Positions 360-54,668 of a stretch of 64,000 bases of DNA are shown here, piece by piece. Every line of letters begins with the position of its first letter. The stretch's first letter is position 1. This stretch comes from a virus (Duplodnaviria; Heunggongvirae; Uroviricota; Caudoviricetes), in the IMG/VR virus record IMGVR_UViG_2667527592_000002. The stretch is one strand, 5' to 3'. Under the pieces are notes generated by a model, which searched no databases, was not told the DNA's origin, and saw only the letters and a program-made list of their open reading frames with translations. The translations under genes were made by a program, and so were the position numbers.

Positions 360-813
360 TATTTGGTTGTAACACGGCGTATGGCACATGCGTCGTTAGC
401 GGTCTGGTGTAGCTGTTAGGTACCTTACTAACACTGCATGGGCACATCAGGTAGCCGGAATGTGCAAGTCACCGCTGGAGGGATAGCGGACTCAGGGACT
501 CACCATCCTGGCGATTCGGTGTGACAGCCGGAATAGCACGGCGCACAACAGGAAAAGGCGTTTAATTAACGCGAGCGCCGTTTCCGTTGTGGTAATTGCG
601 GCTATGCGCTCGTGACGAAGCCATTTTCATTCACTACGTTCTGATAAGTGACGTCGCCGGGAGTGGCTAACCTGGCAGGTGGAGGCACCACCGCCACAAC
701 TCCTTTCAATTCATCATATAGCCGCTCAGGCTGTACCCCTTAATTAATACGAAGTTACGACATCACTACCGGTACTTCCGGGGGATAGTCGCGCGTGTAA
801 AAAAGGAGACGTT

Positions 814-1389
814 ATGTTAATGGCGAACGATAACGCATATGCAGAAGAAGATCTCATTTTGAGTGACTTCATAGGGAAGCGGGAACGCTGGACCCAAAAG
901 CGAGAGGAACTTTACGCCTCATTAGTTCGCAAAGGCGTCAATATCGAAACCGCACAAAGCGGCGATATGACAGTGGTAAGCGTTGGATTGCACGGTGTAA
1001 GCGTGTCAGCAATCAATCATGAGCCATACGTTGCGTTATCCGAGTCAATGGTAAGGTTAGTTAAGTTCCTGAAGTACACAGAAGCGAATAATGTAATCAT
1101 TGGCAAAAAGAATATCCCTTTTTCCTCGGCTTTTTACTGGATGATGAAAGGGCTTGATGCCCGGCGGACATCATGGCCTAAAGGGAGCTATATATCGATG
1201 TTCCGTGGCAGCATTGGCAGCAAAGAAAAGCTCTTCGAATTCTTGCCGGAAGAGGCATTCGATATTGTGGAAGGGTGCGATGTGATGGTGATGCCTCGCC
1301 TGGTAATGATGAATGGGGATTTACAGGCGCAGACAGACTGGTTTGCAACTGGTGTGGATATTATCGCGACTGACTGGGAGGCTTTCTGA
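814..1389 (+). CDS. hypothetical protein (191 aa)
   Basis: ORF track; ATG preceded by AAGGAG; no recognisable motif. Confidence 0.55.
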   Translation: MLMANDNAYAEEDLILSDFIGKRERWTQKREELYASLVRKGVNIETAQSGDMTVVSVGLHGVSVSAINHEPYVALSESMVRLVKFLKYTEANNVIIGKKNIPFSSAFYWMMKGLDARRTSWPKGSYISMFRGSIGSKEKLFEFLPEEAFDIVEGCDVMVMPRLVMMNGDLQAQTDWFATGVDIIATDWEAF

Positions 1390-1781
1390 TGTACGGGACT
1401 ACCAAATTAAGCACTCAACAGGCCACCAATATGGAGTGGTCTATCGCTAACTGTAAGATTGTGTCATGCAATGCCACGCGTACTGATGTGGGCCATAAAA
1501 GCACTATAACAGGCTATCTAGTAATGACCACCAGGGGGATGAGGGTTAGATTTCGCTGGAAAGCAGAGCAAGTAACGCCATTCAGAGAGCCATCAATGCC
1601 GCTGCAGGTTGAGCAGGATTATCTATGTTTACCAGAAATAGATGGAGGAATGCTGGTGGAGTCTGATGGTAGTAAGGCTGATTTTGAAGCCAATTTGAAG
1701 CTGGCACAGGCCGTAATCAATAGTTATCGCGGAAAGTGGATCGCAAAAGTGAAACATGTTGTTCGTTTGTCTCGCTGGTAG
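1389..1781 (+). CDS. hypothetical protein (130 aa)
   Basis: ORF track; start overlaps upstream stop (TGATG), translational coupling. Confidence 0.5.
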   Translation: MYGTTKLSTQQATNMEWSIANCKIVSCNATRTDVGHKSTITGYLVMTTRGMRVRFRWKAEQVTPFREPSMPLQVEQDYLCLPEIDGGMLVESDGSKADFEANLKLAQAVINSYRGKWIAKVKHVVRLSRW

Positions 1782-1798
1782 CGTTAGGTATTTAATAT

Positions 1799-1814
1799 TA
1801 GTTTTCTAATATAA
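1799..1814 (+). promoter_or_regulatory. operator-like motif, variant copy (TAGTTTTCTAATATAA)
   Basis: Member of recurring asymmetric motif family; about 80 bp upstream of the 1890 operon. Confidence 0.35.
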
Positions 1815-1889
1815 TCATCTTTTTACCAGTCTATACAGTTTTAACATTCTCATTATCATCCCCTCGGTCATTTCCTGCCCGGGGGATTA

Positions 1890-2282
1890 ATGGAACAAAT
1901 CAGCAGCGCAGAAATTGCGGATATCATGATCAGGGCTGACTGCTATCTGACAGTCACTGAAATTACCACTCTCGCCAAAGAAAAATACCCTCATCTCCAT
2001 GTTTCACGAGTAAGTGTAACTAACATCATTCGTCATTTTGTTCGTTCAAGCAGGGCAATCTGTGAGCTGGATGATCGTGTGTATCCACGAAAATACTGGC
2101 TACATGGTCTGAACGGATATCAGTTCAAGGTGCGCGGGCGCACGCCTGAATACGGTAGCTTACTGGTTAAAAACTGTAGCAGGAAATCAGTCGAACAGGC
2201 GCGAAAAGAGCAACGAGAGCTGGTGGACATGGCGAATAAGCTGTGGAATGCCGCCGTTAAAAAGCGTGGTGTTGCTTTATGA
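1890..2282 (+). CDS. hypothetical protein (130 aa)
   Basis: ORF track; stop overlaps pacA-like start (ATGA). Confidence 0.5.
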   Translation: MEQISSAEIADIMIRADCYLTVTEITTLAKEKYPHLHVSRVSVTNIIRHFVRSSRAICELDDRVYPRKYWLHGLNGYQFKVRGRTPEYGSLLVKNCSRKSVEQARKEQRELVDMANKLWNAAVKKRGVAL

Positions 2283-3643
2283 GTCTGGTTAATTGGGAGG
2301 AGCACCGCGCCCGCTTTATAGCGTTGCGTGAAGAAAAAGGGATCACTGTAAAGGAATACTGTGAGGAGCATGGCCTTAGCTTCAATACAGCCAGAAAGCA
2401 TCTCAATATGAAAAAAAATGAGGTGCGGTCGCAGGTAAAGACAACAAAAAAAAGCACCAAATCACCTGAAAAAAAACGGGCGGGAAGAGCAACAAAAAAG
2501 CTGGAAGAGGGTGCAGAAAAAACAAAATTTACAGAAATTGACAATTCGCAGGGTGCAGGTTCTTTCCGAAGTATGCCAAGAAAGAAAACTTCGGATCATG
2601 AAAGTAATTCCAATAATAACAATGAGATAAAAGAATCTGTCAGGAGATCATTGCGCGAAAAAATGGCGAAAATGATCCCCGAAGAAGATAAAAGCGCCCC
2701 AAAAATTGAGGGATCTTCAGCAATGATCCCTGGCGGTGCTGTGCAACGTGCCACATTGCCCACTACGAATGTGGCTCGCGACATGATGAAGAACGGCGCA
2801 GAAGAACACCTGCGGTTAGCAATTCAAATGGCGCAAGAGCGCGCACTTCAGTATCAAAGCATTGTTGATCAGGAGGCCGAACGTCTACAGGCGGAAATAG
2901 ACGCCTTGGGCGATAAAGAGCCAGAAGGAATGCACCCTGGGCAGCGCCTTCTCGGTCTAATCAGTGACGCGGCCTACTACATGAATGATTTTATCAGTAG
3001 GTTGGCAGCTATATATCAGTCCGAACAAAAGCTGCGACAGGGGGATGAAAAGCTTCGTCAGAGCGCTCGCCAGCAAGCATTCAAAGAGGCTGAGGCCAGA
3101 GAAAAACTCGAATTAGCACGCCTACAGGCCGAACAGCGTGGCAAAGAGATTGAATATCGCATTGGCGCTGACGCACGCGCTGCCAGAGTTATCGCCGCCG
3201 CTATACGTATGCGTGAGCGCGAGGAACTGGATGATATCGGTGTTGCTGAATACATCGAGCGCCAGGGGGTCAGCGTCCCGGCTATCCTCGCGGCGCGCGC
3301 GGCGAAAGCTATCACTCTTCTCGAACCACCTGTTTCTGACGTCAATGATGTTGATGATGAACAGCTGGACAAAGAGGCAAGGGAGTTTGCAACGCTTCAG
3401 GCTAACCATCCGCAATGGCTGGCAGAGCGCCGGGCGGATGTGGCAACCATTGTTGAAGAATTGGGGTGCGGAGATTACGACCGCAATGGCGAGCGTAAAG
3501 CTGGAGAATTCGAGGCCAGCGACGAAGAGCTGGATATTGACCCTTCGGCAACGGCTGAAATTTACGGTGATTATGATGCATCTGATGCAGGGTATGACGC
3601 CGGAGATGATGATATCGCGATAGAACCGCCGGAGGATGATTAA
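2279..3643 (+). CDS. putative terminase small subunit (PacA-like), acidic C-terminus
   Basis: Immediately upstream of and overlapping the large terminase; N-terminal HTH-like segment; internal GATC cluster; assignment by position, not by recognised sequence. Confidence 0.45.
   Translation: MSLVNWEEHRARFIALREEKGITVKEYCEEHGLSFNTARKHLNMKKNEVRSQVKTTKKSTKSPEKKRAGRATKKLEEGAEKTKFTEIDNSQGAGSFRSMPRKKTSDHESNSNNNNEIKESVRRSLREKMAKMIPEEDKSAPKIEGSSAMIPGGAVQRATLPTTNVARDMMKNGAEEHLRLAIQMAQERALQYQSIVDQEAERLQAEIDALGDKEPEGMHPGQRLLGLISDAAYYMNDFISRLAAIYQSEQKLRQGDEKLRQSARQQAFKEAEAREKLELARLQAEQRGKEIEYRIGADARAARVIAAAIRMREREELDDIGVAEYIERQGVSVPAILAARAAKAITLLEPPVSDVNDVDDEQLDKEAREFATLQANHPQWLAERRADVATIVEELGCGDYDRNGERKAGEFEASDEELDIDPSATAEIYGDYDASDAGYDAGDDDIAIEPPEDD
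2594..2728. other. GATC cluster (5 sites in 135 bp), candidate pac-type packaging site
   Basis: GATC at 2594, 2646, 2674, 2712, 2725, mostly as TGATC[CT] hexamers; P1 pac lies within pacA and is built from Dam-methylated TGATC[AG] hexamers. Confidence 0.35.
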
Positions 3644-5151
3644 TGGCTGGCGGGCGCAAGATTAAATGCGTCACCAGCGATCCACGCTGGCGCGATATGG
3701 TAATCAAATACCGCTACAACTTTACCCAGGCTGTTGTCGATATTTTTGGGATGTTCCCCTCCCACCAGCAGCAGCAGATCATTCAGTCAGTGCAGGAAAC
3801 GGGGAGTAGGACGACCGTCACGTCCGGACACGGAACGGGGAAGTCGTCCCTTACCGCGATGTTGCTGTTGATTTTTATGATCCTGTTCCCCGATGCCCGT
3901 GTCATCATTGTTGCTAACAAGATAGGCCAGGTAAAAACAGGCGTATTCAAATACGTTAAACAGTATTGGGCGAATGCAGTTAAGCGTCATGGGTGGTTGC
4001 AGACCTATTTTGTCCTCTCTGACACCATGTTTTATGAGCGCTCCCGTAAGGGGATTTGGGAAGTTCTCTGCAAAGGTTATCGACTCGGCAACGAAGAAGC
4101 GCTGGCGGGGGAACACGCGGCACATTTGCTTCTAATTCTGGACGAAGCATCTGGTATATCTGATAAGGCGATCGGCGTAATGACCGGTGCTCTTACTGAA
4201 GAAGATAACCGGATGTTGATGCTATCCCAGCCAACAAGGCCAAGTGGTTATTTCTACGATTCGCACCATTCTCAAGCAAAAACCCCAGACAACCCGAAAG
4301 GGATCTGGACAGCAATTGTTCTTAACTCGGAAGAATCACCGTTCGTCACACCACAATTCATCAAGCAGAAGCTTCTGGAATATGGCGGGCGCGATTCTAT
4401 TGAGTACATGGTCAAGGTGCTTGGTCAGTTCCCACGAGAAATTAACGGCTATTTGCTTGGTCGTGATGAATGCGATCGCGCTGCTCGCCGCAAGGTGTTG
4501 TTGGAGAAAAACTGGGGATGGGTGGCAACGGCTGACGTTGGTAATGGGCGAGATAAGTCGGTCCTCAACATCTGCAAAGTATCTGGTCACAGGGATAAGC
4601 GGCGCGTTGTTAACTTTAAGGTAATGGAGATGCCTGGCACTATGGACCCATTGGCCTTTGCTGACTTCATATATAACGAATGTACGCCGGAAAAATACCC
4701 GAATATAACAATCGCGGTTGATGCTGATGGTTTTGGTTCTGATACGTGTGCGCAGTTGGTGCGTCGTGGTGCGAACCCGGTACGTATTCGGTGGGGAAAA
4801 CCCATGTTTGCGAACAAAGACAGGGAGCGATTTGTTAATCAGCGTGCCTACGCAAATATTATGGCGCGTGATGCCATAAAGTCAGGGCGTATGCGGATAG
4901 ACAGTGACCCTAAAACGGCAGAGCAAGCGTCAAAAATCCCCTTTTTACTGAATGAAGAAGGGAAAATGGCGATGATGCGCAAAGAGCACATGCGGCAAAA
5001 GCTAAACATCAAATCGCCTGACCGATGGGATACCTACTGCTTCACTATGCTGGTGGACTATGTGCCTGCTAATGAAGATATTGGTGCCGAAATGGCAACT
5101 TTCCGAGATCAGGTTCTGGCGGATATCGAAATGCCGGATCTGGATATATAA
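3643..5151 (+). CDS. terminase large subunit (PacB-like)
   Basis: 502 aa; Walker A SGHGTGKS, Walker B LLLILDEAS, C-terminal acidic nuclease-like region; start overlaps pacA stop. Confidence 0.7.
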   Translation: MAGGRKIKCVTSDPRWRDMVIKYRYNFTQAVVDIFGMFPSHQQQQIIQSVQETGSRTTVTSGHGTGKSSLTAMLLLIFMILFPDARVIIVANKIGQVKTGVFKYVKQYWANAVKRHGWLQTYFVLSDTMFYERSRKGIWEVLCKGYRLGNEEALAGEHAAHLLLILDEASGISDKAIGVMTGALTEEDNRMLMLSQPTRPSGYFYDSHHSQAKTPDNPKGIWTAIVLNSEESPFVTPQFIKQKLLEYGGRDSIEYMVKVLGQFPREINGYLLGRDECDRAARRKVLLEKNWGWVATADVGNGRDKSVLNICKVSGHRDKRRVVNFKVMEMPGTMDPLAFADFIYNECTPEKYPNITIAVDADGFGSDTCAQLVRRGANPVRIRWGKPMFANKDRERFVNQRAYANIMARDAIKSGRMRIDSDPKTAEQASKIPFLLNEEGKMAMMRKEHMRQKLNIKSPDRWDTYCFTMLVDYVPANEDIGAEMATFRDQVLADIEMPDLDI

Positions 5152-5170
5152 AGCCCCGCGATGCGGGGCC
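5152..5170. terminator. hairpin between convergent genes (GCCCCGC-GAT-GCGGGGC)
   Basis: 7-bp GC stem; T/A-rich run follows on the minus strand, so mainly terminates the 5179..6216 transcript. Confidence 0.5.
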
Positions 5171-5178
5171 GGTTGTGA

Positions 5179-6216
5179 TTACCAGAGCTTCGCGGCGTAC
5201 TGCGTTTGGGGGAATGTGTATCCGTAACGTTCTTCGATTGCTTTGCCGTATTTTTTACGAGCTTCATTCAGTTTAATGCCGGTCAGGTCGTCTCCAGAGG
5301 CCATCATTACCTCTAACAATTCCAGATCCATTTTATCCAGCCTTGCCATTGCTTCACGTGATGTACGTATCTTACGCTCAATGATATGGCGAATAGCCGG
5401 ATCGGCATCCTCCAGCATCTTAGCGGATTTCTGCTTAAGGCTTTCATTGCGAATATCGATGTTCCTTAAGATGTACGACTTCGCAACGTAGCTTGGCTGG
5501 TGTTTTTCCAGGTCACGAACACGATATAAGTTAAAATCGCCGAGAAGGCTGCAAGGTACCGATTCGACGCCAGAATAAATTGTAATGCTCCGGCGTTCAC
5601 CAACATTATTGACAACGGGGATCGTTGTCTTCGGTAGTCTTGCGAAAACCAATGCGCCATGTGCGCCAACTCTAAAGCGAGAAAGGGCATTGCTGCCTTC
5701 GATGTTTGTTGTCAGCACAACATCTGTATATGCCTCTTTACGCGCCCGGTAGATCTCGCCTTCAGGCTCAGCTTCAAAGAAGCGCTGTTCTTCTTCAAGA
5801 GCGCCTACGATTTGAGAAAAAACCCTATTTTTCAGGCTTTTCTTTATGATTTTGTCGTATTTTTTGAGCAATTGTTCACGTGTAAATGTACGTGTTGTTG
5901 TAGCGCTTTGCACAACAACATGCGTGCTTTGATTGGTGTCCTCAATGATGAATGGGATCGGAGAATATACAGACTCAACAATGTTCGACGCTTTGCCGTC
6001 GGCATCGCGGCACATGTCAACGAAGGCTTTCCATTCAGCAAGACATTTTTCAGCTTCTTCTAATATGTTTTGGTCATGCGTTAATGCAACATGGCGGAAT
6101 TCCTCGCCAGCATAACTGGTATCATGGAAAACAGAGTTTGCGACCACCAGCTCTTTCCACCGTTCAGCGGTTTGCAGGAACCGTTTGTACTCTTTCTCGA
6201 TCGACTTCTTACTCAT
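5179..6216 (-). CDS. hypothetical protein (345 aa); candidate lysogeny regulator by position
   Basis: ORF track; ATG with AGGA RBS; operator-like motif 16-33 bp upstream; sits between terminase and lox-cre. Confidence 0.55.
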   Translation of the reverse strand: MSKKSIEKEYKRFLQTAERWKELVVANSVFHDTSYAGEEFRHVALTHDQNILEEAEKCLAEWKAFVDMCRDADGKASNIVESVYSPIPFIIEDTNQSTHVVVQSATTTRTFTREQLLKKYDKIIKKSLKNRVFSQIVGALEEEQRFFEAEPEGEIYRARKEAYTDVVLTTNIEGSNALSRFRVGAHGALVFARLPKTTIPVVNNVGERRSITIYSGVESVPCSLLGDFNLYRVRDLEKHQPSYVAKSYILRNIDIRNESLKQKSAKMLEDADPAIRHIIERKIRTSREAMARLDKMDLELLEVMMASGDDLTGIKLNEARKKYGKAIEERYGYTFPQTQYAAKLW

Positions 6217-38533: not shown

Positions 38534-40195
38534 TTAACCTAACTTCGCCCAGGTATCACGCAGCCCAACGGTGCGGTTAAATACCGGTTTTTCCGCCGTA
38601 GAATGGCGGCTGTCGAGGCAGAAATAACCTTCACGCTCAAACTGGAATGCTTTACCCGCTACCGCTTCTTTCAGCGACGGTTCAGCAAAGCCTTGTTTGA
38701 TCACCAGCGATTCCGGGTTAATCACCGACAGGAAATCATCCGCAGCACCTGGGTTCGGTACACTGAACAGACGGTCGTACAGGCGAATTTCAACCGGCAG
38801 CGCATGTGCCGCGCTCACCCAGTGAATAACGCCTTTCACTTTACGACCATCTGCCGGATCTTTGCTTAAGGTGTCGGCGTCATAAGTACAGAAGATGGTG
38901 GTGATATTGCCTTCGGCATCTTTCTCCACGCGTTCAGCCTTAATGACGTAAGCATTACGCAGACGCACTTCTTTACCCAGCACCAGACGTTTGTACTGCT
39001 TGTTAGCTTCTTCGCGGAAATCGGCGCGGTCGATCCAAATCTCACCGCTAAACGGCACCTGACGGCTACCCATTTCCGGTTTGTTTGGATGGTTCGGCAT
39101 GGTGACCATTTCGCCTTCGCCCTGGTAGTTTTCGATAACCAGTTTCACCGGATCGATAACCGCCATTGCGCGCGGGGCATTTTCGTTGAGATCTTCACGG
39201 ATGCAGGATTCCAGCGACGCCATCTCAATGGTGTTGTCCTGCTTGGTCACGCCGATGCGTTTGCAGAACTCACGAATAGAAGCCGCAGTGTAACCACGAC
39301 GACGCAGACCGGAAATGGTCGGCATACGCGGGTCATCCCAGCCTTCAACGTGCTTGTCGGTCACCAGCAGGTTCAGCTTACGCTTGGACATCACGGTGTA
39401 TTCCAGATTCAGGCGCGAGAATTCGTACTGGCGCGGGTGAACAGGAATGGTGATGTTGTCCAGTACCCAGTCATACAGACGACGGTTGTCCTGGAACTCA
39501 AGCGTACACAGAGAGTGCGTAATACCTTCCAGCGCATCGCTGATGCAGTGGGTGAAGTCGTACATCGGGTAGATGCACCACTTGTTGCCAGTCTGGTGGT
39601 GTTCAGCAAACTTAATACGGTACAGCACCGGGTCGCGCATCACGATAAACGGCGAAGCCATGTCGATTTTCGCACGCAGGCAGGCTTTACCTTCTTCAAA
39701 ACCACCGGCACGCATTTTTTCGAACAGCGCCAGGTTCTCTTCAACGCTGCGGTCGCGGTACGGGCTGTTTTTACCCGGCTGCGTCAGGGTGCCGCGGTAT
39801 TCGCGGATCTGTTCCGGCGTCAGTTCGTCAACATACGCCAGGCCTTTGTTGATCAGTTCAACAGCATAGGCATGGAGTTTGTCAAAATAATCGGAGGAGT
39901 AACGGATGTTGCCAGACCAGTGAAAACCTAACCATTCAACGTCGTTTTTAATCGACTCAACGTACTCGATATCTTCTTTTACCGGGTTAGTGTCGTCGAA
40001 ACGCAGGTTGCACTGGCCTTTATAGTCCTGGGCGATCCCGAAGTTCAGGCAGATAGATTTCGCATGACCAATATGCAGATAGCCATTCGGTTCCGGCGGG
40101 AAACGGGTATGTACTGTGGTGTGCTTACCACTGGCCAGATCTTCATCGATGATCTGACGAATAAAGTTAGTCGGGCGGGCTTCTGCCTCACTCAT
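38534..40195 (-). CDS. glnS: glutaminyl-tRNA synthetase
   Basis: 553 aa; near-identical to E. coli GlnRS from memory ([17 protein letters not shown]...; HIGH in YLHIGHAKS; MSK in VMSKRKL). Confidence 0.95.
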
Positions 40196-40369
40196 TGTGG
40201 ATTCCTCAAAGCGTAAACAACGTATAACAGCGTATGATCTTATAAGCCGAATAGGCTGACAACCACTAGTTGATTAGAAATTGCTTTCTATCGTTATTTC
40301 AATAATGAGCTTTTTCATGAAGCCCACTTTTGCGCATAAGTAAATTAATGATAAATGGTACACAATCGG

Positions 40370-40428
40370 AACCAAAAAGGATGTAAAGGTGCACCAAATT
40401 AGTGGTGTATTGGTACACCTTTGGTTCA
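40370..40428. promoter_or_regulatory. long imperfect palindrome (GGTGCACC / GGTGTA..TACACC), candidate centromere or terminator
   Basis: AAAGGTGCACC ... GGTACACCTTT inverted arms with outer GAACCAAA / TTTGGTTC. Confidence 0.3.
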
Positions 40429-40463
40429 AGACTTTTTAAGTTCTAAAACCAACCTGAAAGACT

Positions 40464-40751
40464 TTATTTTGCTTCCTCAGACTCCGCTAACATGAGGATA
40501 GCATGGCGGATCATATTCAATTTGCTGCGATTATGCTTTTTACTTAACGCATCAAGTACTTGGTACTCGTATTCATTGAAACCAACACGAATAGATTTAA
40601 AATCACGTGGAGCGTCCTTATCGAGCACTTTGTTGTCTTCTGGTTGCTCACCCGGCACCAAATCAGCCTTACTGGCAAAATCCTCAATTCGGCGTTCAAG
40701 ATCGGGGTCTTTTACTTCGGGGGCTTTTACCGATTTACGAGGCTTAATCAC
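40464..40751 (-). CDS. ribbon-helix-helix centromere-binding protein (ParG-like)
   Basis: 95 aa; C-terminal RHH-like RVGFNEYEYQVLDALSKKHNRSKLNMIRHAIL; overlaps parA stop. Confidence 0.6.
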   Translation of the reverse strand: MIKPRKSVKAPEVKDPDLERRIEDFASKADLVPGEQPEDNKVLDKDAPRDFKSIRVGFNEYEYQVLDALSKKHNRSKLNMIRHAILMLAESEEAK

Positions 40752-41385
40752 TTAATAACTCCTTAACCAACATCTGGATTTCACCTTTAGCTTTCCCGTT
40801 GTCCATCTCAACAACGCCCTTCCCTTCAGCCATGCAATCGCGGTAAACCTTACGATCACGAATGATGGTTTTCAGCAACTTCAGTTGCGGATATTCAGCC
40901 AGGTACTCTTTGGCCTCATTAGTTTCATTCACAACCGGATTGGATGGGGCCATTGTTAAGACTGCGAACGCCTTAATGCTAGGATTAGGCATCAGGTCCA
41001 AAGCCTCTTCAAACACTTCAACAAAGTGTGCCAGCGTGTCTAAATCTGGTTGAGATGGTCTGAATGGGACCAACACAATATCTGCAGCGGTTATGCCTGT
41101 ACGCATCTCTTTGCTATCGCGCCCGGCTGTATCAACAACTACAAATTCATAACGCTTATCCAGATCGAGAAGTGTTTCTCGAATATTACCAAACTTCTGG
41201 ACACAATGAATTACAGGAGAAACCTCTGCCGTGTTACGGTCAGCTGCCCAGCGGGCAGCTGTTCCTTGCTTGTCTGCATCTAGTAACACTACATCCTTAT
41301 TTGCGCGGGCAAGCTCCGCACAGATGTTTACGCTTGTGGTTGATTTTCCACAGCCACCTTTTTGGCTGACTACCAATATAATCAT
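40744..41385 (-). CDS. parA: ParA-family partition ATPase (small type Ib, ParF-like)
   Basis: Deviant Walker A SQKGGCGKST, VVVDTAG Walker B; ATG 41385 after GAGGAA RBS. Confidence 0.85.
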   Translation of the reverse strand: MIILVVSQKGGCGKSTTSVNICAELARANKDVVLLDADKQGTAARWAADRNTAEVSPVIHCVQKFGNIRETLLDLDKRYEFVVVDTAGRDSKEMRTGITAADIVLVPFRPSQPDLDTLAHFVEVFEEALDLMPNPSIKAFAVLTMAPSNPVVNETNEAKEYLAEYPQLKLLKTIIRDRKVYRDCMAEGKGVVEMDNGKAKGEIQMLVKELLSD

Positions 41386-41625
41386 ATCCGTTCCTCGGTG
41401 TGATTTTGGTATCAAAACGGTTCCAGATAAGAGCCTTTTTGATGCGGGACAGGCTCTATAATGGAGTCATGAATGTTTGGCAAAGTATAACATCAATCAG
41501 ACCAAATACACCTTATATTGCATCCTATTTAACACGAAATCAGCCCTAAATTGGAACCAGATACAAAATTGCACCATAACAGCACCTAACTGGTGCCAGA
41601 TTAACACTAATTAGACACCATTAAG

Positions 41626-41654
41626 GCATAAAAAAGGCTGCAATTTGCAGCCTT
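41626..41654 (-). terminator. rho-independent terminator downstream of parR
   Basis: AAGGCTGCA-ATT-TGCAGCCTT perfect 9-bp stem; T5 follows on minus strand. Confidence 0.6.
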
Positions 41655-41672
41655 ACACCAGCACATCTTCTG

Positions 41673-42017
41673 TCAATCAGGTAGAGAGTCAGCCAGATTG
41701 CGCGCCGACGCGCTTTTGGCAACAACTTGCTCCTTCACTGGCTCAATGGAGGCAGGGCGCTCCTCAACCGCAGCTGGTAGTTCCAGGAAGGATGCCAGCA
41801 TTTTTCGGATCAGCTCCGGGTTGTTGTCTTCGGTCAGCAGGGAAGCCAGTAATCCTGGAAGCCTGCTATCGACTTCTCCCAGCGCAAGCCCTGCCAACAA
41901 TGCGGTTCTTGCCATATCGCTATGTTTTTTTATCTTCTCGCTCGCCGCCTTTTCATTGGCATAAGCCTCTGGGCGAAGATAAATCATCACTTTCTTACGT
42001 TCCTGAGACATGGACAT
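41673..42017 (-). CDS. parR: ParR-like adaptor (type II partition)
   Basis: 114 aa directly downstream of parM; ARTALLAGLALG resembles ParR N-terminal region. Confidence 0.6.
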   Translation of the reverse strand: MSMSQERKKVMIYLRPEAYANEKAASEKIKKHSDMARTALLAGLALGEVDSRLPGLLASLLTEDNNPELIRKMLASFLELPAAVEERPASIEPVKEQVVAKSASARNLADSLPD

Positions 42018-42024
42018 TACCTCG

Positions 42025-42981
42025 TTAACCGATTGCTTTCAGGCCATGAACAAGAGCAAGTTGCGGGTCATCCGCCACGAAGAAACGGTCATCACGAATA
42101 TTAACTTGCTCGCGAATTGCATCTGCCACCAGCGGTGCGCCACCACCGATCACCATGACATGCGTATATCCTTTAAAGTCGCCAATCACATCAAGAACTC
42201 GGGTACGCAGACGGTCAATGCTTGCGGCAATGGCCTTTTTCACATCACCAATCGCTGATGGGTCATTGATATTGTCGTTCAGATAATCTTCATCGTGGCG
42301 GTTAATAATGAGCTGATCAACATTGTAATTTGACGTTTCGGTATTGGCCCTTGCAAGTGCTTGCCTTACTTCCCTGGTGACCAGTGATACACCAAGATTC
42401 GAATCGCCAAAAACACGGGAAACTGCCGTCATTTGCCCGGCGACCATTGAAACATCAAGGGTAGTTCCACCCAAATCGACGATAAGAACAGAATGGGCAG
42501 GGTTCAGATTGTCGCACAGGCCAATTCCTGCCGGAATAGACTCCGGTCGTACCGTAACTTTCTTAATCGTGAACACATTGCCTTTATTCAGCGTGACGGG
42601 GCGCATAAGGCTGGCTTTCTTGCGCTCGATGTTATCGAGATTGTATTGCGCGTCGTCGTCGTAAAACTCCGCCAGAGGCAGCGTGACCACAATTTCTACT
42701 TCCTGCGGCTCAATACCGCTTGTCAGCAGGGCATGGTGAACAGCCAGGACGTTAAGCGGGCTGTATTGCCATTCCACGTTATTCGTCGGCAGAACATCTG
42801 GCGAGATCAAATCATACGAATACTTCTCGTCGTCAATGACATAGTTAAACGGCTTGCCAGCACCAAATGTTGCTGACCATCCGCGCTTAAAGCTGTTAGG
42901 ACTGATGTGAGTGCGAGTTTCCCCGTCGTGCTCCCACAGCATTTTGATATTGGTTGAACCATCATCGATAAAAATGCGCAT
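42025..42981 (-). CDS. parM: ParM/StbA actin-like segregation ATPase
   Basis: MRIFIDDGSTNIK ... HISPNSFKRGW ... VLAVHHALLTSG collinear with R1 ParM; ATG 42981 after GGAG. Confidence 0.85.
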   Translation of the reverse strand: MRIFIDDGSTNIKMLWEHDGETRTHISPNSFKRGWSATFGAGKPFNYVIDDEKYSYDLISPDVLPTNNVEWQYSPLNVLAVHHALLTSGIEPQEVEIVVTLPLAEFYDDDAQYNLDNIERKKASLMRPVTLNKGNVFTIKKVTVRPESIPAGIGLCDNLNPAHSVLIVDLGGTTLDVSMVAGQMTAVSRVFGDSNLGVSLVTREVRQALARANTETSNYNVDQLIINRHDEDYLNDNINDPSAIGDVKKAIAASIDRLRTRVLDVIGDFKGYTHVMVIGGGAPLVADAIREQVNIRDDRFFVADDPQLALVHGLKAIG

Positions 42982-43007
42982 CTTCTTGCTCCACTTCTGA
43001 GACACAT

Positions 43008-43162
43008 TTGAGAATCAAAATGTAATTTTAAAAGAGAAGCACCCAAAAATCCACACCAAACGAGACAAAAAAGAGCGCTTGTTGAGTTTATTTTGAGAAT
43101 ATCTTAATCACCCACTGAATGATGGCCTGATAGTGAGATTTATTTGAGAATGAATTGAGAAT
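43008..43162. repeat. parC-like centromere repeats (TTGAGAAT x4 plus degenerate copies)
   Basis: TTGAGAAT at 43008, 43093, 43144, 43155; variants TTGAGTTT (43082), GTGAGATT (43132); upstream of parM. Confidence 0.45.
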
Positions 43163-43248
43163 ACAAAAAATATTCCGAAATTTAACTCTCCGTTTGAATG
43201 ACGAAATAACAAAGTGATGACAATAGGAGGATAACCAGGAGGTGAAGA

Positions 43249-43533
43249 ATGAGCGCAATAGCCACCAGCGACACCCTTTGTTCTGGTCACGGAGGATTTC
43301 CGCCGCGACTGGTAGCTGAAACCGTTCCCTGGTTCACCGTTAACGGTAAGCCAGTTGTTGTAGATGGTGCCATGTTTCCCAGTCACACTGACGGTAACAG
43401 TGCACACCCAGGGGCAGCTGTATCGACGCGAGTATGGTTTTCGATAGGTGGAAAGGGAGTTGTCTGTGTAGGCGATCCGCTTTCTTGTGGTTCTGTTATC
43501 GCCAACGGCGAGGATATTTTTCAGGTTGCATAA
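43249..43533 (+). CDS. PAAR-motif spike-tip protein
   Basis: 94 aa; CSGHGGFPP ... PSHT ... GSVIANG pattern; AGGAGG RBS. Confidence 0.6.
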   Translation: MSAIATSDTLCSGHGGFPPRLVAETVPWFTVNGKPVVVDGAMFPSHTDGNSAHPGAAVSTRVWFSIGGKGVVCVGDPLSCGSVIANGEDIFQVA

Positions 43534-48238: not shown

Positions 48239-49897
48239 ATGAATAAGATTAGTTTTTCGGTAGGGCAGGCAGCTGGCGTTGCTGTAATGTCAGTAAATGC
48301 TGACGCTACCCTCACCAATACCAGCGGTGGCGCTTCCGTCTTTGCTGGGCTTGTAATATCGCGTCGTGGCGCACCGGGTAAGGTACTGAAAGTTGACGAT
48401 ACGACTTATCAAAGCGTATTAGGTTCACCGATTCACCCTCGCCTGGGCGCGGCATTTGAACCATACCGCCACGTGGAGCGTGCAGTAAAAGGCGGTTCTG
48501 GATATGTCGTTCGAGTTTGCGCTAAAGACATGAAGGTACCGGGTATTTCTGTTTCCGTTGTGGGCAGAGCAAAAGCGGCAAAGGCGAGTAAAGAACTTTC
48601 CGTTGAACCAACTGAAACCACAGTAAATCCAGGTGACACATTAAGCGTTGGTGTTGCTTCAACAGCAACGACTCAATCAGTGGTCTTCACACCAAAAGAG
48701 ACGCCTCAGATAAAAGGTGATGAGAAAGCATTATTCTTCATCAAAGATGGTGATGCATCTCAAAATCGCACGTTATCACTAACCCGCGATAATGAAGAAA
48801 GCGAACTCTTTACGCTGACGCTGAAAGAAAAACAAACTGATGGGTCCATTGAGGTACTGGAAAGCCACCAGGTGTCCTTCAATCCAGAAGGCACTAACGA
48901 CATGGGCCAACCTGCATGGATTCCGACACTGCTTGAAAGCCAGTCCACTCGCATTGGTGCCGTGCTGGCAGATGATGCAGAAGCATCTGCTGCTCAACTC
49001 ATTTTTGAGGATGTAGCTTTTGAAGGTGGTACTGATGGCGATCTGTCCACAATTAACACTGAAGACTATCTGGAAGCATTAAAGGTTCTCGAAGCTTCAG
49101 AGGTTAATTACACCGCATTGCTGTCACTGGGTTGTTATGACGCATCCGCCTTAGCCGCAATCAAAAAGCTGGCTGAAGATGTTCGCGTAGACATGTTCTA
49201 TGACCTGAAGGGTAACCAGACACCTGAAAACGCTATTTCAGAAGCGAAAAGCCATAGTTTTGGCGGCTCACATCAACCAAGCCGTTACTACTTCCCGCTT
49301 TCCTGCCGAGATACCTTCACTGGGATGAATGTCGTCTATGGCATTAGTTGCGACGCATTCGTAGCGAAAGCAAAAGGAGTTGCGCTGGTACCGGATGTTG
49401 GTGGTTGGCATTACGCACCCGCAGGTATATCACGCGCGATTATTGATCGACAGAACATTGCCCGAATTCCAAATATCGGTGCGGTTGATCGTGAAGCGTT
49501 CGTTCTTGCGCGCATTAATCCAGTTTCAGTTGCTGCTGACGGGTCCGTTTACATTGACGACTCTTTAACAACTTACAGCAAAAACAACTATCTGCGATTC
49601 CAGCATGTGTCTTCCTTGATGAACGCCATCGCCAGAAATTTCTATGACGTAGCTCAGGCGATTAAGCACGAACCGGATGGCATTACCAAAGAAACGCTCA
49701 TGAAAGCAATGACTGAATTGCTTGACCGTTACGTTGCAGCCGGTGCGCTGGTTACTCCACGTGACAAATCCCAGGGCGAAGATCCATATGTTGTTCAGGT
49801 TGTCCAAAAGGACATCGATCTGTGGGAAGTGTCCTGGTCTGTTTGTCCGACCGGTACAGCTCGCCGAATCGTCGGTAAGCCAATTCTGATGCGCTGA
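48239..49897 (+). CDS. putative tail sheath protein
   Basis: 552 aa; AGAGG RBS; by size and position in a contractile-tail gene set only. Confidence 0.4.
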   Translation: MNKISFSVGQAAGVAVMSVNADATLTNTSGGASVFAGLVISRRGAPGKVLKVDDTTYQSVLGSPIHPRLGAAFEPYRHVERAVKGGSGYVVRVCAKDMKVPGISVSVVGRAKAAKASKELSVEPTETTVNPGDTLSVGVASTATTQSVVFTPKETPQIKGDEKALFFIKDGDASQNRTLSLTRDNEESELFTLTLKEKQTDGSIEVLESHQVSFNPEGTNDMGQPAWIPTLLESQSTRIGAVLADDAEASAAQLIFEDVAFEGGTDGDLSTINTEDYLEALKVLEASEVNYTALLSLGCYDASALAAIKKLAEDVRVDMFYDLKGNQTPENAISEAKSHSFGGSHQPSRYYFPLSCRDTFTGMNVVYGISCDAFVAKAKGVALVPDVGGWHYAPAGISRAIIDRQNIARIPNIGAVDREAFVLARINPVSVAADGSVYIDDSLTTYSKNNYLRFQHVSSLMNAIARNFYDVAQAIKHEPDGITKETLMKAMTELLDRYVAAGALVTPRDKSQGEDPYVVQVVQKDIDLWEVSWSVCPTGTARRIVGKPILMR

Positions 49898-53143: not shown

Positions 53144-53233
53144 ATAGCTTTAATTATGTGTGCTGGAGGGTTGCTCATTTCCCGTCAGCACCCACGCCCT
53201 CAACGATAGCGGGTAGGGAAGGAAGCGCAATTT

Positions 53234-53528
53234 TGAGGGCATTTTTTACATCATCAATCCATCTGTAATGAAGGCATTCTTTACACATTTCAATAATATC
53301 AATCAGTTAACACCGTGAATGATAATGAAAAAGCACAATAAGAATGCCAGAAACACACGATATTGGTTGAGGGCAATTTTTACATAAACCTTAAATATCA
53401 ATAGGTTATATAAAAACACAACTTGCTAATAACAAGATACATGCAATTAAGATGTAAAAATTGCCCTCAATTGCCGATCGTTAAGGGCAAATTCTACACC
53501 TTGAGAGGGGTGTAAAAATTGCCCTTAA
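53234..53528. repeat. incA-like iteron array downstream of repA (about 6 copies, both orientations)
   Basis: 19-bp units TGAGGGCA(A/T)TTTTTACA(T/C)C at about 53234, 53270, 53367, 53451(rev), 53482, 53509(rev); last overlaps repA stop. Confidence 0.6.
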
Positions 53529-54280
53529 GACTGCTGATAGGTAAATTTTATCCTGGTAACTTTGCCGCCTTCCGTCACCTCTGAGAAGACTATTTTCATT
53601 TTTGTATTTTTTTCAATCTCTGCTACAGCCTTCGTTAAAAAACTTCTCTTAAATTCGGCATACCGCTGATAGCTTTTTGGTAACCCATAACGCTCCCGCA
53701 TCCATTCGACGCCAAGTATGGCAAAGCCGCTTCCATCATCCTTCCTGTACTGGCATAAGGACTCATAAAGCCGCATAGAATAAGGATTTGTAAGGCGAGA
53801 CACTTCGGTAAAATTCAGCCTTGTGAATCTCTTATCAAGCAGAGTAAAAAACGGCATGAGATATGGATTAAGATGAATAATGTAAGTCCCGCGCCGTGGT
53901 GAATAGGCATCCTTAATCATCCAAGGATAAGACTCATAACTATCTTCTGATTCGGTCGATTCATCAGGGTTATATATCGTAACTTTCTTCTCGCTAAGCC
54001 CTGAAATGGCCTTACGAATATCCTTGCTGGCTTCAGCAGAGGGCAAATTATACATCTCTGCATATTCGTTGACCGTCAACTCACAGGCACCTGAACCAAG
54101 AACGCCATCCTTAGAAGCATAGCGAAGTCTTCCCACCACAATAAACAACAGTCGCTTTTGGTCGCGAGTCAGGTGATAAGCAGCCTCCGTGATCTCATTG
54201 GCTTGTGCCAAACTACGACTAATAGGTGTCGCTGACTCAATCAGGCTGACGGCTTTTGCTGTTAATTCCGCTCTGTTCAT
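53525..54280 (-). CDS. repA: iteron-binding replication initiator RepA (Rep_3 family)
   Basis: C-terminal MRERYGLPKSYQRYAEFKRSFLTKAVAEIEKNT ... KVTRIKF typical of Rep_3 initiators; flanked by iterons; ATG 54280. Confidence 0.85.
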   Translation of the reverse strand: MNRAELTAKAVSLIESATPISRSLAQANEITEAAYHLTRDQKRLLFIVVGRLRYASKDGVLGSGACELTVNEYAEMYNLPSAEASKDIRKAISGLSEKKVTIYNPDESTESEDSYESYPWMIKDAYSPRRGTYIIHLNPYLMPFFTLLDKRFTRLNFTEVSRLTNPYSMRLYESLCQYRKDDGSGFAILGVEWMRERYGLPKSYQRYAEFKRSFLTKAVAEIEKNTKMKIVFSEVTEGGKVTRIKFTYQQS

Positions 54281-54304
54281 AACCCTGTGTGATCCTTCAA
54301 ATGG

Positions 54305-54421
54305 TGAGGGCAATTTTTACATCACTTTGAGGGCAATTACTACACCTTTTGAGGGCAAATCTTACACCTTTTGAGGGCAAATCTTACACCGATCGTATTT
54401 AATTGAGGGCAAATCTTACAC
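54305..54421. repeat. oriR-like iteron array: five direct 19-bp iterons
   Basis: TGAGGGCAA(T/A)T(T/A)(T/C)TACA(T/C)C at 54305, 54327, 54349, 54371 (22-bp register), 54403; inverted copy at 54545-54564. Confidence 0.7.
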
Positions 54422-54517
54422 CAGTCTCCTCTACAGCCCGCGCCACTACTGGCTCCAGCGACGCCTAAAAAGGATCTAAAAAGGATTAAAAATGGAAAAA
54501 GGTTTATAAAAATACTC

Positions 54518-54526
54518 TGTGGATAT
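54518..54526 (-). promoter_or_regulatory. DnaA-box-like 9-mer (ATATCCACA)
   Basis: 8/9 match to TTATCCACA in AT-rich stretch between iterons. Confidence 0.35.
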
Positions 54527-54668
54527 GTGAGTAGCGTCACTTAAGGTGTAAAAATCACCCTCAATAATCGCTTCACGACCGGCAAAGATCTTCATTCAAT
54601 CCCCATCGCAAATCACACACTCCCTATCCTCTGGAAAATGAACAGATACCTGCTTTTCGGAGGAATAA

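Follow-up and report, generated by a model that had tools for sequence, protein, structure and literature searches.

A probable tandem double partition locus, type II beside type Ib, in a D6-like plasmid prophage

Introduction

The classical case of adjacent type Ib and type II partition systems is the "double par locus" of pB171, a virulence plasmid of enteropathogenic Escherichia coli, in which, as PMC13245405 and PMC6519299 describe it, par1 is a type II ParMRC system and par2 a type Ib ParABC system. Here we describe a locus with the same pairing of types, also adjacent, in a 64,000-nucleotide (nt) stretch of viral DNA (IMG/VR record IMGVR_UViG_2667527592_000002, referred to throughout as the window). 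Judged by its sequence, the window is a D6-like (P1 subgroup 2) phage-plasmid, that is, a prophage in plasmid form. We conclude that this element probably carries a tandem double partition locus made of two self-contained and apparently independently regulated cassettes.

The comparison with pB171 brings out likenesses and differences. The pB171 operons are described as divergent, with one shared regulatory region (PMC6519299), and they are divergent in the pB171-type locus that we compared (L005). In the window, by contrast, the operons lie in tandem and in the same orientation with a terminator between them, and each cassette has a separate repeat motif. Identities to the proteins of the pB171-type locus are 42.5% for ParM, 32% for ParR, and 43% for ParA, and the small ribbon-helix-helix (RHH) protein of the window has no detectable sequence relation to the pB171-type ParB. 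The replicons also differ, the window being a P1-like phage-plasmid and pB171 an IncFIB plasmid.

For type II systems the reference is the ParMRC locus of R1, which is described as having repeats on both sides of the promoter, an 11-base-pair (bp) repeat unit bound by ParR, and ten iterons in two blocks of five. The window shares the 11-bp unit and the placement of repeats on both sides of the promoter, and its ParM is 54% identical to R1-type ParM; its ParR is only 31% identical to R1-type ParR. The iterons also differ: those of the R1-type locus are A/C-rich, AAACCCAAAAA-like units, whereas those of the window have a CTCA core and number seven, in clusters of three, two, and two. The closest relative outside the D6 group is found on the Proteus mirabilis plasmid pPm60 and related Providencia plasmids, with ParM 70% and ParR 40% identical. 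This uncharacterised locus, on a conjugative plasmid and with no adjacent ParA and RHH cassette, has one-stranded CTCA iterons upstream of parM, in 11-bp register, with gaps of 11, 29, 11, 73, 11, 22, 31, and 22 bp. Its 73-bp gap contains the promoter, as does the 74-bp gap of the window. The type Ib prototype, ParF-ParG-parH of TP228, has a small partner protein whose N-terminus is basic and flexible and whose RHH domain is C-terminal, and in both respects, as in its ParF-like ParA, the window resembles it. It differs in that the small protein of the window falls outside the Pfam ParG family and its site motif, GGTRC, is only a candidate.

The genes themselves have been annotated before. They correspond to orf58 to orf61 of phage D6, which the GenBank record labels as StbA type and StbB type plasmid stability proteins, "possible ParA partitioning function," and a hypothetical protein. 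For a D6-like Salmonella plasmid, "cop, parA, stbB and parM" have been given together as the partition system (PMC6799933). Annotations of D6 and of pYU39_89-type plasmid prophages, which have the same locus at 98.5% identity, neither divide it into two systems nor assign a fold to orf61, and they describe no centromeres. Nor is the pairing rare. A preliminary description of the window, made from its sequence alone, had called dual partition loci uncommon. This view does not hold: a 2026 survey of PLSDB found multiple systems in ∼19% of plasmids having any and the pairing of an RHH type I with a type II system in 971 accessions (PMC13245405), and pB171 provides a precedent. On the Shigella plasmid pINV both systems are functional and differ in their response to temperature (PMC6519299). 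Since such pairings are well known and fairly common in enterobacterial plasmids, the locus is ordinary rather than surprising, and the pairing in it is real and conserved.

Results

The minus strand encodes all four partition genes; read along that strand, the locus runs from a parC-like array through parM, parR, a terminator, and parA to the gene for a 95-amino-acid (aa) protein (Table 1). Domain matches, a structure model, and open reading frames (ORFs) together bear out the proposal, made in the preliminary description, that two unrelated partition cassettes stand side by side here, a type II ParMRC system and a type Ib ParA/RHH system. That description had the type Ib pair followed by the type II pair. 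The adjacency stands, but the order of transcription puts the type II cassette ahead of the type Ib one. Only 13 nt separate parM from parR, 287 nt lie between the parR stop and the parA start, and the parA stop and the GTG start of the 95-aa gene overlap by 8 nt. The annotated ATG starts in D6 and RefSeq shorten three of the ORFs: parM from 326 to 318 aa (start at 42981), parR from 114 to 112 aa (42011), and parA from 223 to 213 aa (41385). The alignment to R1 ParM begins residue 1 to residue 1 with the 318-aa form. The true parM start is thus 42981, and four copies of the repeat TTGAGAAT, discussed below, therefore all lie upstream of parM.

The two cassettes are directly adjacent, with a conserved intrinsic terminator between them that was called by our scanner. 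Across the eight D6-like lineages that we aligned, its stem is paired in every one, with a single loop base differing in lineage L011, while the flanking sequence can barely be aligned. Moreover, the motif of each cassette is not repeated in the control region of the other: there is no CTCA core upstream of parA, and a single, unconserved GGTGC is found upstream of parM.

Table 1. Partition locus features and neighboring genes, in window coordinates
Feature	Position	Strand	Remarks
PAAR-domain gene (P1 upfC-like)	43249–43533	+	Divergent from parM
parC-like centromere/operator candidate of the type II system	42995–43163	−	Seven 11-bp CTCA-core iterons in three clusters; consensus ATTCTCAAAnn
parC, distal cluster	43131–43163	−	Three iterons
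parC, middle cluster	43080–43101	−	Two iterons
parC, proximal cluster	42995–43016	−	Two iterons
Weak −35 of the parM-parR promoter, TGGATT	43048–43053	−	Nearly conserved; TGGAT invariant
Inferred −10 of the parM-parR promoter, TAAAAT	43025–43030	−	Invariant in 8/8 lineages
parM (stbA), actin-like segregation ATPase, 318 aa	42025–42981	−	Pfam StbA_N 1.8e-69, ParM_N 3.5e-55
parR (stbB), adaptor, predicted parC-binding RHH protein, 112 aa	41673–42011	−	Pfam PF10784 (Plasmid_stab_B) 3.5e-11
Intrinsic terminator between the cassettes	41626–41654 (hairpin 41634–41654)	−	AAGGCTGCAAATTGCAGCCTT followed by a T-run
Upstream control region of the type Ib cassette, candidate centromere/operator	41395–41625	−	Extended −10 and GGTRC/GYACC motifs
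Extended −10 of the type Ib cassette, TGTTATACT	41484–41492	−	TGnTATACT kept in all lineages
parA, small ParA, 213 aa	40744–41385	−	Deviant Walker A KGGCGKST; no N-terminal helix-turn-helix; Pfam AAA_31, CbiA, MipZ
95-aa centromere-binding-protein candidate (D6 orf61)	40464–40751	−	GTG start; basic N-terminal tail; C-terminal RHH at about residues 50–93
Candidate second centromere downstream of the type Ib cassette	40340–40430		GGTGTACC, GGTGCACC, GGTTCC, and GTGTACC motifs
glnS, full-length glutaminyl-tRNA synthetase	38534–40195	−	Directly downstream of the type Ib cassette; junction near 40263–40283
Rep_3 initiator	53525–54313	−	∼10.5 kb from the partition locus; replicon span 53229–54565

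The type II proteins are readily recognized. The window ParM matches the structures of R1 ParM over its full length (E = 1e-111) and retains a DLGGTTLD motif whose Asp is equivalent to D170, a residue described as essential in ParM (PMC6519299). The window ParR matches PDB chain 2jd3 ("StbB protein") at 1.6e-6 and also PHROG 8671 ("partition protein"). Over the stretch that aligns, 2jd3 and the pB171-type ParR (L005) have the same sequence.

Upstream of parM lies the candidate centromere of this system. The repeat TTGAGAAT occurs nine times in the window against 3.06 expected, a count that none of 100 shuffles reached. Four copies, already noticed in the preliminary description, start at 43008, 43093, 43144, and 43155, the last two 11 bp apart; from the shuffle rate, ∼0.007 copies would be expected in those 155 bp. 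Their interpretation as a repeat array holds in that a parC-like array does lie upstream of parM, but what repeats is an 11-bp iteron built around CTCA, in seven copies. Read on the opposite strand, TTGAGAAT corresponds to the most strongly conserved stretch of this unit, ATTCTCAAAnn. In the 267 bp between parM and the divergent PAAR gene, the coding (minus) strand contains exactly seven CTCA and no TGAG, with gaps of 11, 11, 40, 11, 74, and 11 bp between cores, and none of 20,000 shuffles gave seven cores. The eight-lineage alignment keeps the CTCA cores while the flanks diverge. Lineage L010 (NZ_CP149812, at ∼4130–4160, aligning with window position ∼43153) carries an exact 11-bp insertion, TTGTTCTCAAA, which raises the number of iterons to eight; judged by sequence, the centromere repeat varies naturally in copy number.

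The proximal iteron pair sits between the TAAAAT hexamer of the predicted parM-parR promoter and the Shine-Dalgarno sequence. Following the R1 model, ParR binding should therefore repress the operon. Matches in the consensus promoter scan were no more numerous than in shuffles. On the plus strand, a promoter-like match, TTGAGA-16-AAAAAT (43144–43171), overlaps the distal parC iterons and faces the divergent PAAR gene; through this overlap, ParR at parC might also repress the PAAR operon.

The ATPase of the second cassette had been called ParF-like in the preliminary description, and indeed it carries a deviant Walker A motif and matches ParF of TP228 over its full length (residues 3–211, E = 1e-18). 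It also matches the full NCBIfam model ParA_partition (NF041546) at E = 8.5e-48. Besides the pB171-type ParA, its relatives include an IncK "ParA family plasmid-partitioning ATPase" (44.5% identity) and, at 67%, a plasmid ParA adjoining RepB. The latter belongs to L003 (CP045667.1, Enterobacteriaceae bacterium Kacie_13, 704–5890), where its RHH partner is 45% identical to the 95-aa protein of the window. CP045667.1 also has a type Ia ParA-ParB pair, and thus two partition systems, together with a toxin-antitoxin module of the Phd/YoeB type; it is typed as non-mobilizable. A phage P1 homologue of the window ParA, as a hidden second P1 system would provide, was not seen: P1 is not among the best 40 of 352 phage matches.

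The partner of this ATPase yields its identity less readily. A word-indexed homologue search with the 95-aa protein returned close relatives only, while an exhaustive profile search recovered 124 representatives of a small-protein family. Relatives in this family match RHH families weakly, namely NikA-like (21/72), RHH_1 (14/72), and DUF6290 (11/72), and the family profile weakly matches CopG (E = 0.4, residues 47–87); an Arc-like PHROG gives another weak signal of the same kind. The AlphaFold2 model, built from a 72-sequence alignment, has a mean pLDDT of 85 and consists of a helix at residues 15–28, an extended segment, and helices at 59–72 and 76–93. When this model was compared with the PDB by Foldseek, ∼45 of the 50 listed matches were RHH proteins, including CopA antitoxin, ParG (1p94), TacA1, CopG, and Arc; the best had target-normalised TM-scores of 0.7–0.83 and root-mean-square deviations (RMSDs) of 1.0–1.6 Å over 40–43 residues. 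An RHH assignment, as suggested in the preliminary description, is thus supported by the model at the level of the fold, which was resolved only by the exhaustive profile search and the structure model together. The protein also has a conserved N-terminal MxKxR, with Lys3 and Arg5 kept in the D6-like set and in the family consensus. Type I centromere-binding proteins have basic, ATPase-stimulating N-terminal tails, as described in work on ParG, and by analogy the MxKxR tail would fit this class.

A control region precedes the type Ib cassette. We assign its promoter to the conserved extended −10, TGnTATACT, in preference to an earlier candidate, TTGCCA-17-TATAGA (41454–41482), which was dropped since it is not conserved among lineages. 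Counted over both flanks of the type Ib operon in all lineages, GGTAC is enriched 13-fold, GGTGC 7.5-fold, and TGGTAC 33-fold. Each lineage has 7–17 GGTRC sites against 1.2–2.1 expected, a count reached by 0–2 of 1,000 dinucleotide shuffles, in the same sequences from which the motif was derived. The commonest spacings are 10–11 and 21 bp. A unit of ∼30 bp is common to the upstream and downstream regions, at 41549–41576 and 40364–40396 (repeat families D4 and D12, inverted repeat I4). The downstream GGTRC-type motifs are present in all lineages, even in those without glnS, whose sequence here does not align. We regard the GGTRC arrays on both flanks as candidate centromere/operator sites; the arrangement appears to parallel parC1 and parC2 as described for par2 of pB171.

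Elsewhere in the window, only one other 150-nt stretch, within 49331–49530, has four GGTRC/GYACC sites and so equals the density of the downstream flank of the type Ib cassette. Structural genes are expected in this part of the window, and the cluster is probably due to chance.

The locus is a constant feature of its element. The 3.1-kb region at 40200–43300 shares 98.5% identity with the P1-like plasmid prophage D6 (Escherichia phage D6, MF356679) and 99.8% with many ∼90-kb plasmids of E. coli and Salmonella that are typed as non-mobilizable. The preliminary description had proposed comparison with related phage-plasmids. All of the ∼125 D6-like plasmids recovered in this comparison carried both cassettes; their hosts belong to five species, namely E. 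coli, Salmonella, Shigella, E. fergusonii, and E. marmotae. A P1-type ParAB was looked for across the D6 genome and none was found, nor was any further partition system; the contrast that had been drawn with the ParAB of P1 is therefore sound for the D6 family.

All four genes are intact in the eight lineages, which speaks against the possibility, raised with the first description, that one system is a pseudogene. Relative to the window, dN/dS is 0.00–0.04 for parM, 0.00–0.11 for parR, 0.03–0.14 for parA, and ∼0.07 for the 95-aa gene. Even where dS exceeds 1, and it reaches saturation for the type Ib genes, dN/dS stays at or below 0.14. All four genes are under strong purifying selection.

The two cassettes have diverged to different extents. 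Across D6-like lineages, nucleotide identity is 82–99% for parM and parR and falls to 70–75% for parA and the 95-aa gene. The same pattern is found in the less divergent lineages (D6, L007, L008, and L009), in which parM is 98–99% and parR 96–99% identical while parA goes down to 74% and the 95-aa gene to 72%. In NZ_CP074704, the ParM and ParR proteins are identical to those of the window, and ParA and the 95-aa protein are 84% and 76% identical. A megablast breakpoint falls at ∼41611, beside the terminator that separates the cassettes. From this divergence and the position of the breakpoint, the type Ib cassette is exchanged as a module together with its control region, which fits the "modular replacement" put forward in the preliminary description.

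Two other features of the element bear on this setting. The Rep_3 replicon has at least 10 iterons of ∼19 bp (TGAGGGCAAATCTTACACC), on both sides of the initiator. A kinship between these iterons and the partition repeats was considered and rejected, since they resemble neither partition motif. The distance between the initiator and the partition locus agrees with the separation of partition and replication genes remarked upon for P1 subgroup 2 (PMC7969092). On the other side, the window glnS has ∼96% nucleotide identity to chromosomal E. coli glnS. This identity extends into 70–90 bp of the upstream region, which marks the gene as a recent chromosomal capture. Plasmid-borne glnS was found at 81 places among complete E. 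coli genomes, and several D6-like lineages are without glnS and have a terminator at that position instead.

Discussion

Sequence, structure prediction, and comparative evidence together provide good support for a functional reading of this locus as two complete partition cassettes. From them we infer DNA binding, autoregulation, and a contribution of both cassettes to the stability of the prophage. In the mechanism that we propose, ParR dimers would bind cooperatively to the 11-bp CTCA iterons that flank and follow the parM promoter, with two effects: repression of the operon and assembly of the partition complex. Filaments of ParM-ATP would then capture two ParR-parC complexes and push sister plasmids apart. 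The type Ib cassette, set apart by the terminator, would be expressed from its own extended −10 promoter. Its 95-aa RHH protein would bind the upstream GGTRC arrays, and probably the downstream ones too, and the basic tail at its N-terminus would activate ATP hydrolysis by the small, nucleoid-bound ParA. ParA in turn would position plasmids by a ParA-gradient (diffusion-ratchet) mechanism.

Several observations weigh against this interpretation, most of them on the type Ib side. The 95-aa protein has no sequence-level match in Pfam, NCBIfam, or the PDB and belongs to no curated centromere-binding family. Pfam ParG did not hit it, and is not among the top 24 families listed for the 72 relatives scanned. 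Its comparison with the pB171-type ParB (E = 0.39) is not significant. The window ParA scores 162.6 bits, below the 180-bit equivalog cut-off of NCBIfam. The GGTRC enrichment, counted as it is in the sequences that defined the motif, is lowest, at 7 sites where 1.2 are expected, in the lineage to which the window belongs. In CP045667, which has the 67%-identical ParA with its RHH partner, GGTRC is not clearly enriched: few sites lie downstream, and the upstream region is full of RepB iterons. Neither the parM −10 nor the type Ib extended −10 was called by the consensus promoter scanner, the former because its −35 is weak, and both are assigned by conservation only. Finally, there are sporadic exceptions: parM is frameshifted in one D6-like plasmid that is otherwise intact (L013, NZ_CP115379, 3147–4103), and the ParA ATPase gene is unannotated in NZ_CP031917.1.

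One could accordingly suppose that only ParMRC segregates the prophage and that ParA and the RHH protein serve another purpose, such as incompatibility with or exclusion of competing plasmids, control of transcription of neighbors such as glnS, or the positioning of other cargo. Such a role would accommodate an RHH protein outside the curated partition families, an ATPase below the cut-off, and a centromere that is only a candidate, in a cassette that is far more diverged than its neighbor and exchanged as a unit. We nonetheless consider it unlikely. The cassette has the build of a type Ib operon, with the stop of a small ParA gene overlapping the start of a small RHH gene, its own promoter, and arrays on both flanks, and its genes are under strong purifying selection. 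Their homologues are plasmid partition genes, among them the pB171-type ParA and the ParA and RHH pair adjoining RepB. As for control of glnS, several lineages that do not have this gene keep the cassette.

A decaying, non-functional remnant of past recombination between plasmids is still harder to reconcile with the data, and we give this explanation very little weight. The frameshift in NZ_CP115379 and the unannotated ATPase of NZ_CP031917 would suit it, as would SCP1, for which PMC13245405 describes only one of two systems as mattering under laboratory conditions. Against these stand four genes that are intact in eight diverged lineages, with dN/dS no higher than 0.14 at dS values up to saturation, the conserved Walker A and ParM Asp170-equivalent motifs, and the retention of both cassettes in ∼125 plasmids. 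A further broken parM, in CP042620, was rejected as evidence of decay because the neighboring genes are also frameshifted; this record is probably a low-quality assembly with sequencing-error artefacts.

It is likewise highly improbable that the TTGAGAAT repeats serve the divergent PAAR (upfC) operon, as part of its operator or promoter, and do not form a ParR centromere. The plus-strand promoter-like match does overlap the distal repeats and face the PAAR gene, but pPm60 has the same iteron layout, including a promoter gap of 73–74 bp, upstream of a parM with a different neighboring gene. In the window, the leader of parM contains the proximal iteron pair, and the 11-bp unit corresponds to that of repeats to which ParR is known to bind. 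The two roles are, besides, not exclusive.

If, as we favor, both cassettes take part in partition, they may still differ in what they contribute. ParMRC could provide routine segregation while the hypervariable type Ib cassette, exchanged together with its flanking arrays, acts as a swappable determinant of partition incompatibility. This division of labor is speculative, and we rate its chances as low. If it were true, it would enable D6-like phage-plasmids to live alongside their relatives, and alongside resident plasmids with a similar ParA, or to displace them.

Part of what is described here was already known, since the genes are annotated in the D6 record (StbA, StbB, and possible ParA) and the paired types are known from pB171. 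The assignment of orf61 to the RHH fold, the resolution of parC into iterons, and the candidate centromeres flanking the type Ib cassette are new. So too are the tandem, terminator-insulated, modular layout and the finding that type Ib cassettes have been exchanged in mosaic fashion, with the terminator as the boundary. No concept is changed by these results, as both the pairing of types and its logic are established, according to descriptions of pB171, R27, and pINV.

The findings may be relevant in several respects. First, the centromere candidates are now defined and could be used in mini-replicons or for curing these elements. Second, the tandem pair accounts for the separation of partition from replication genes in P1 subgroup 2. 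Finally, D6-like phage-plasmids of this subgroup are common in E. coli, Salmonella, and Shigella, and knowing that a tandem ParMRC and type Ib pair, and not P1-type ParAB, is probably what they rely on helps in predicting which resident plasmids they are incompatible with.

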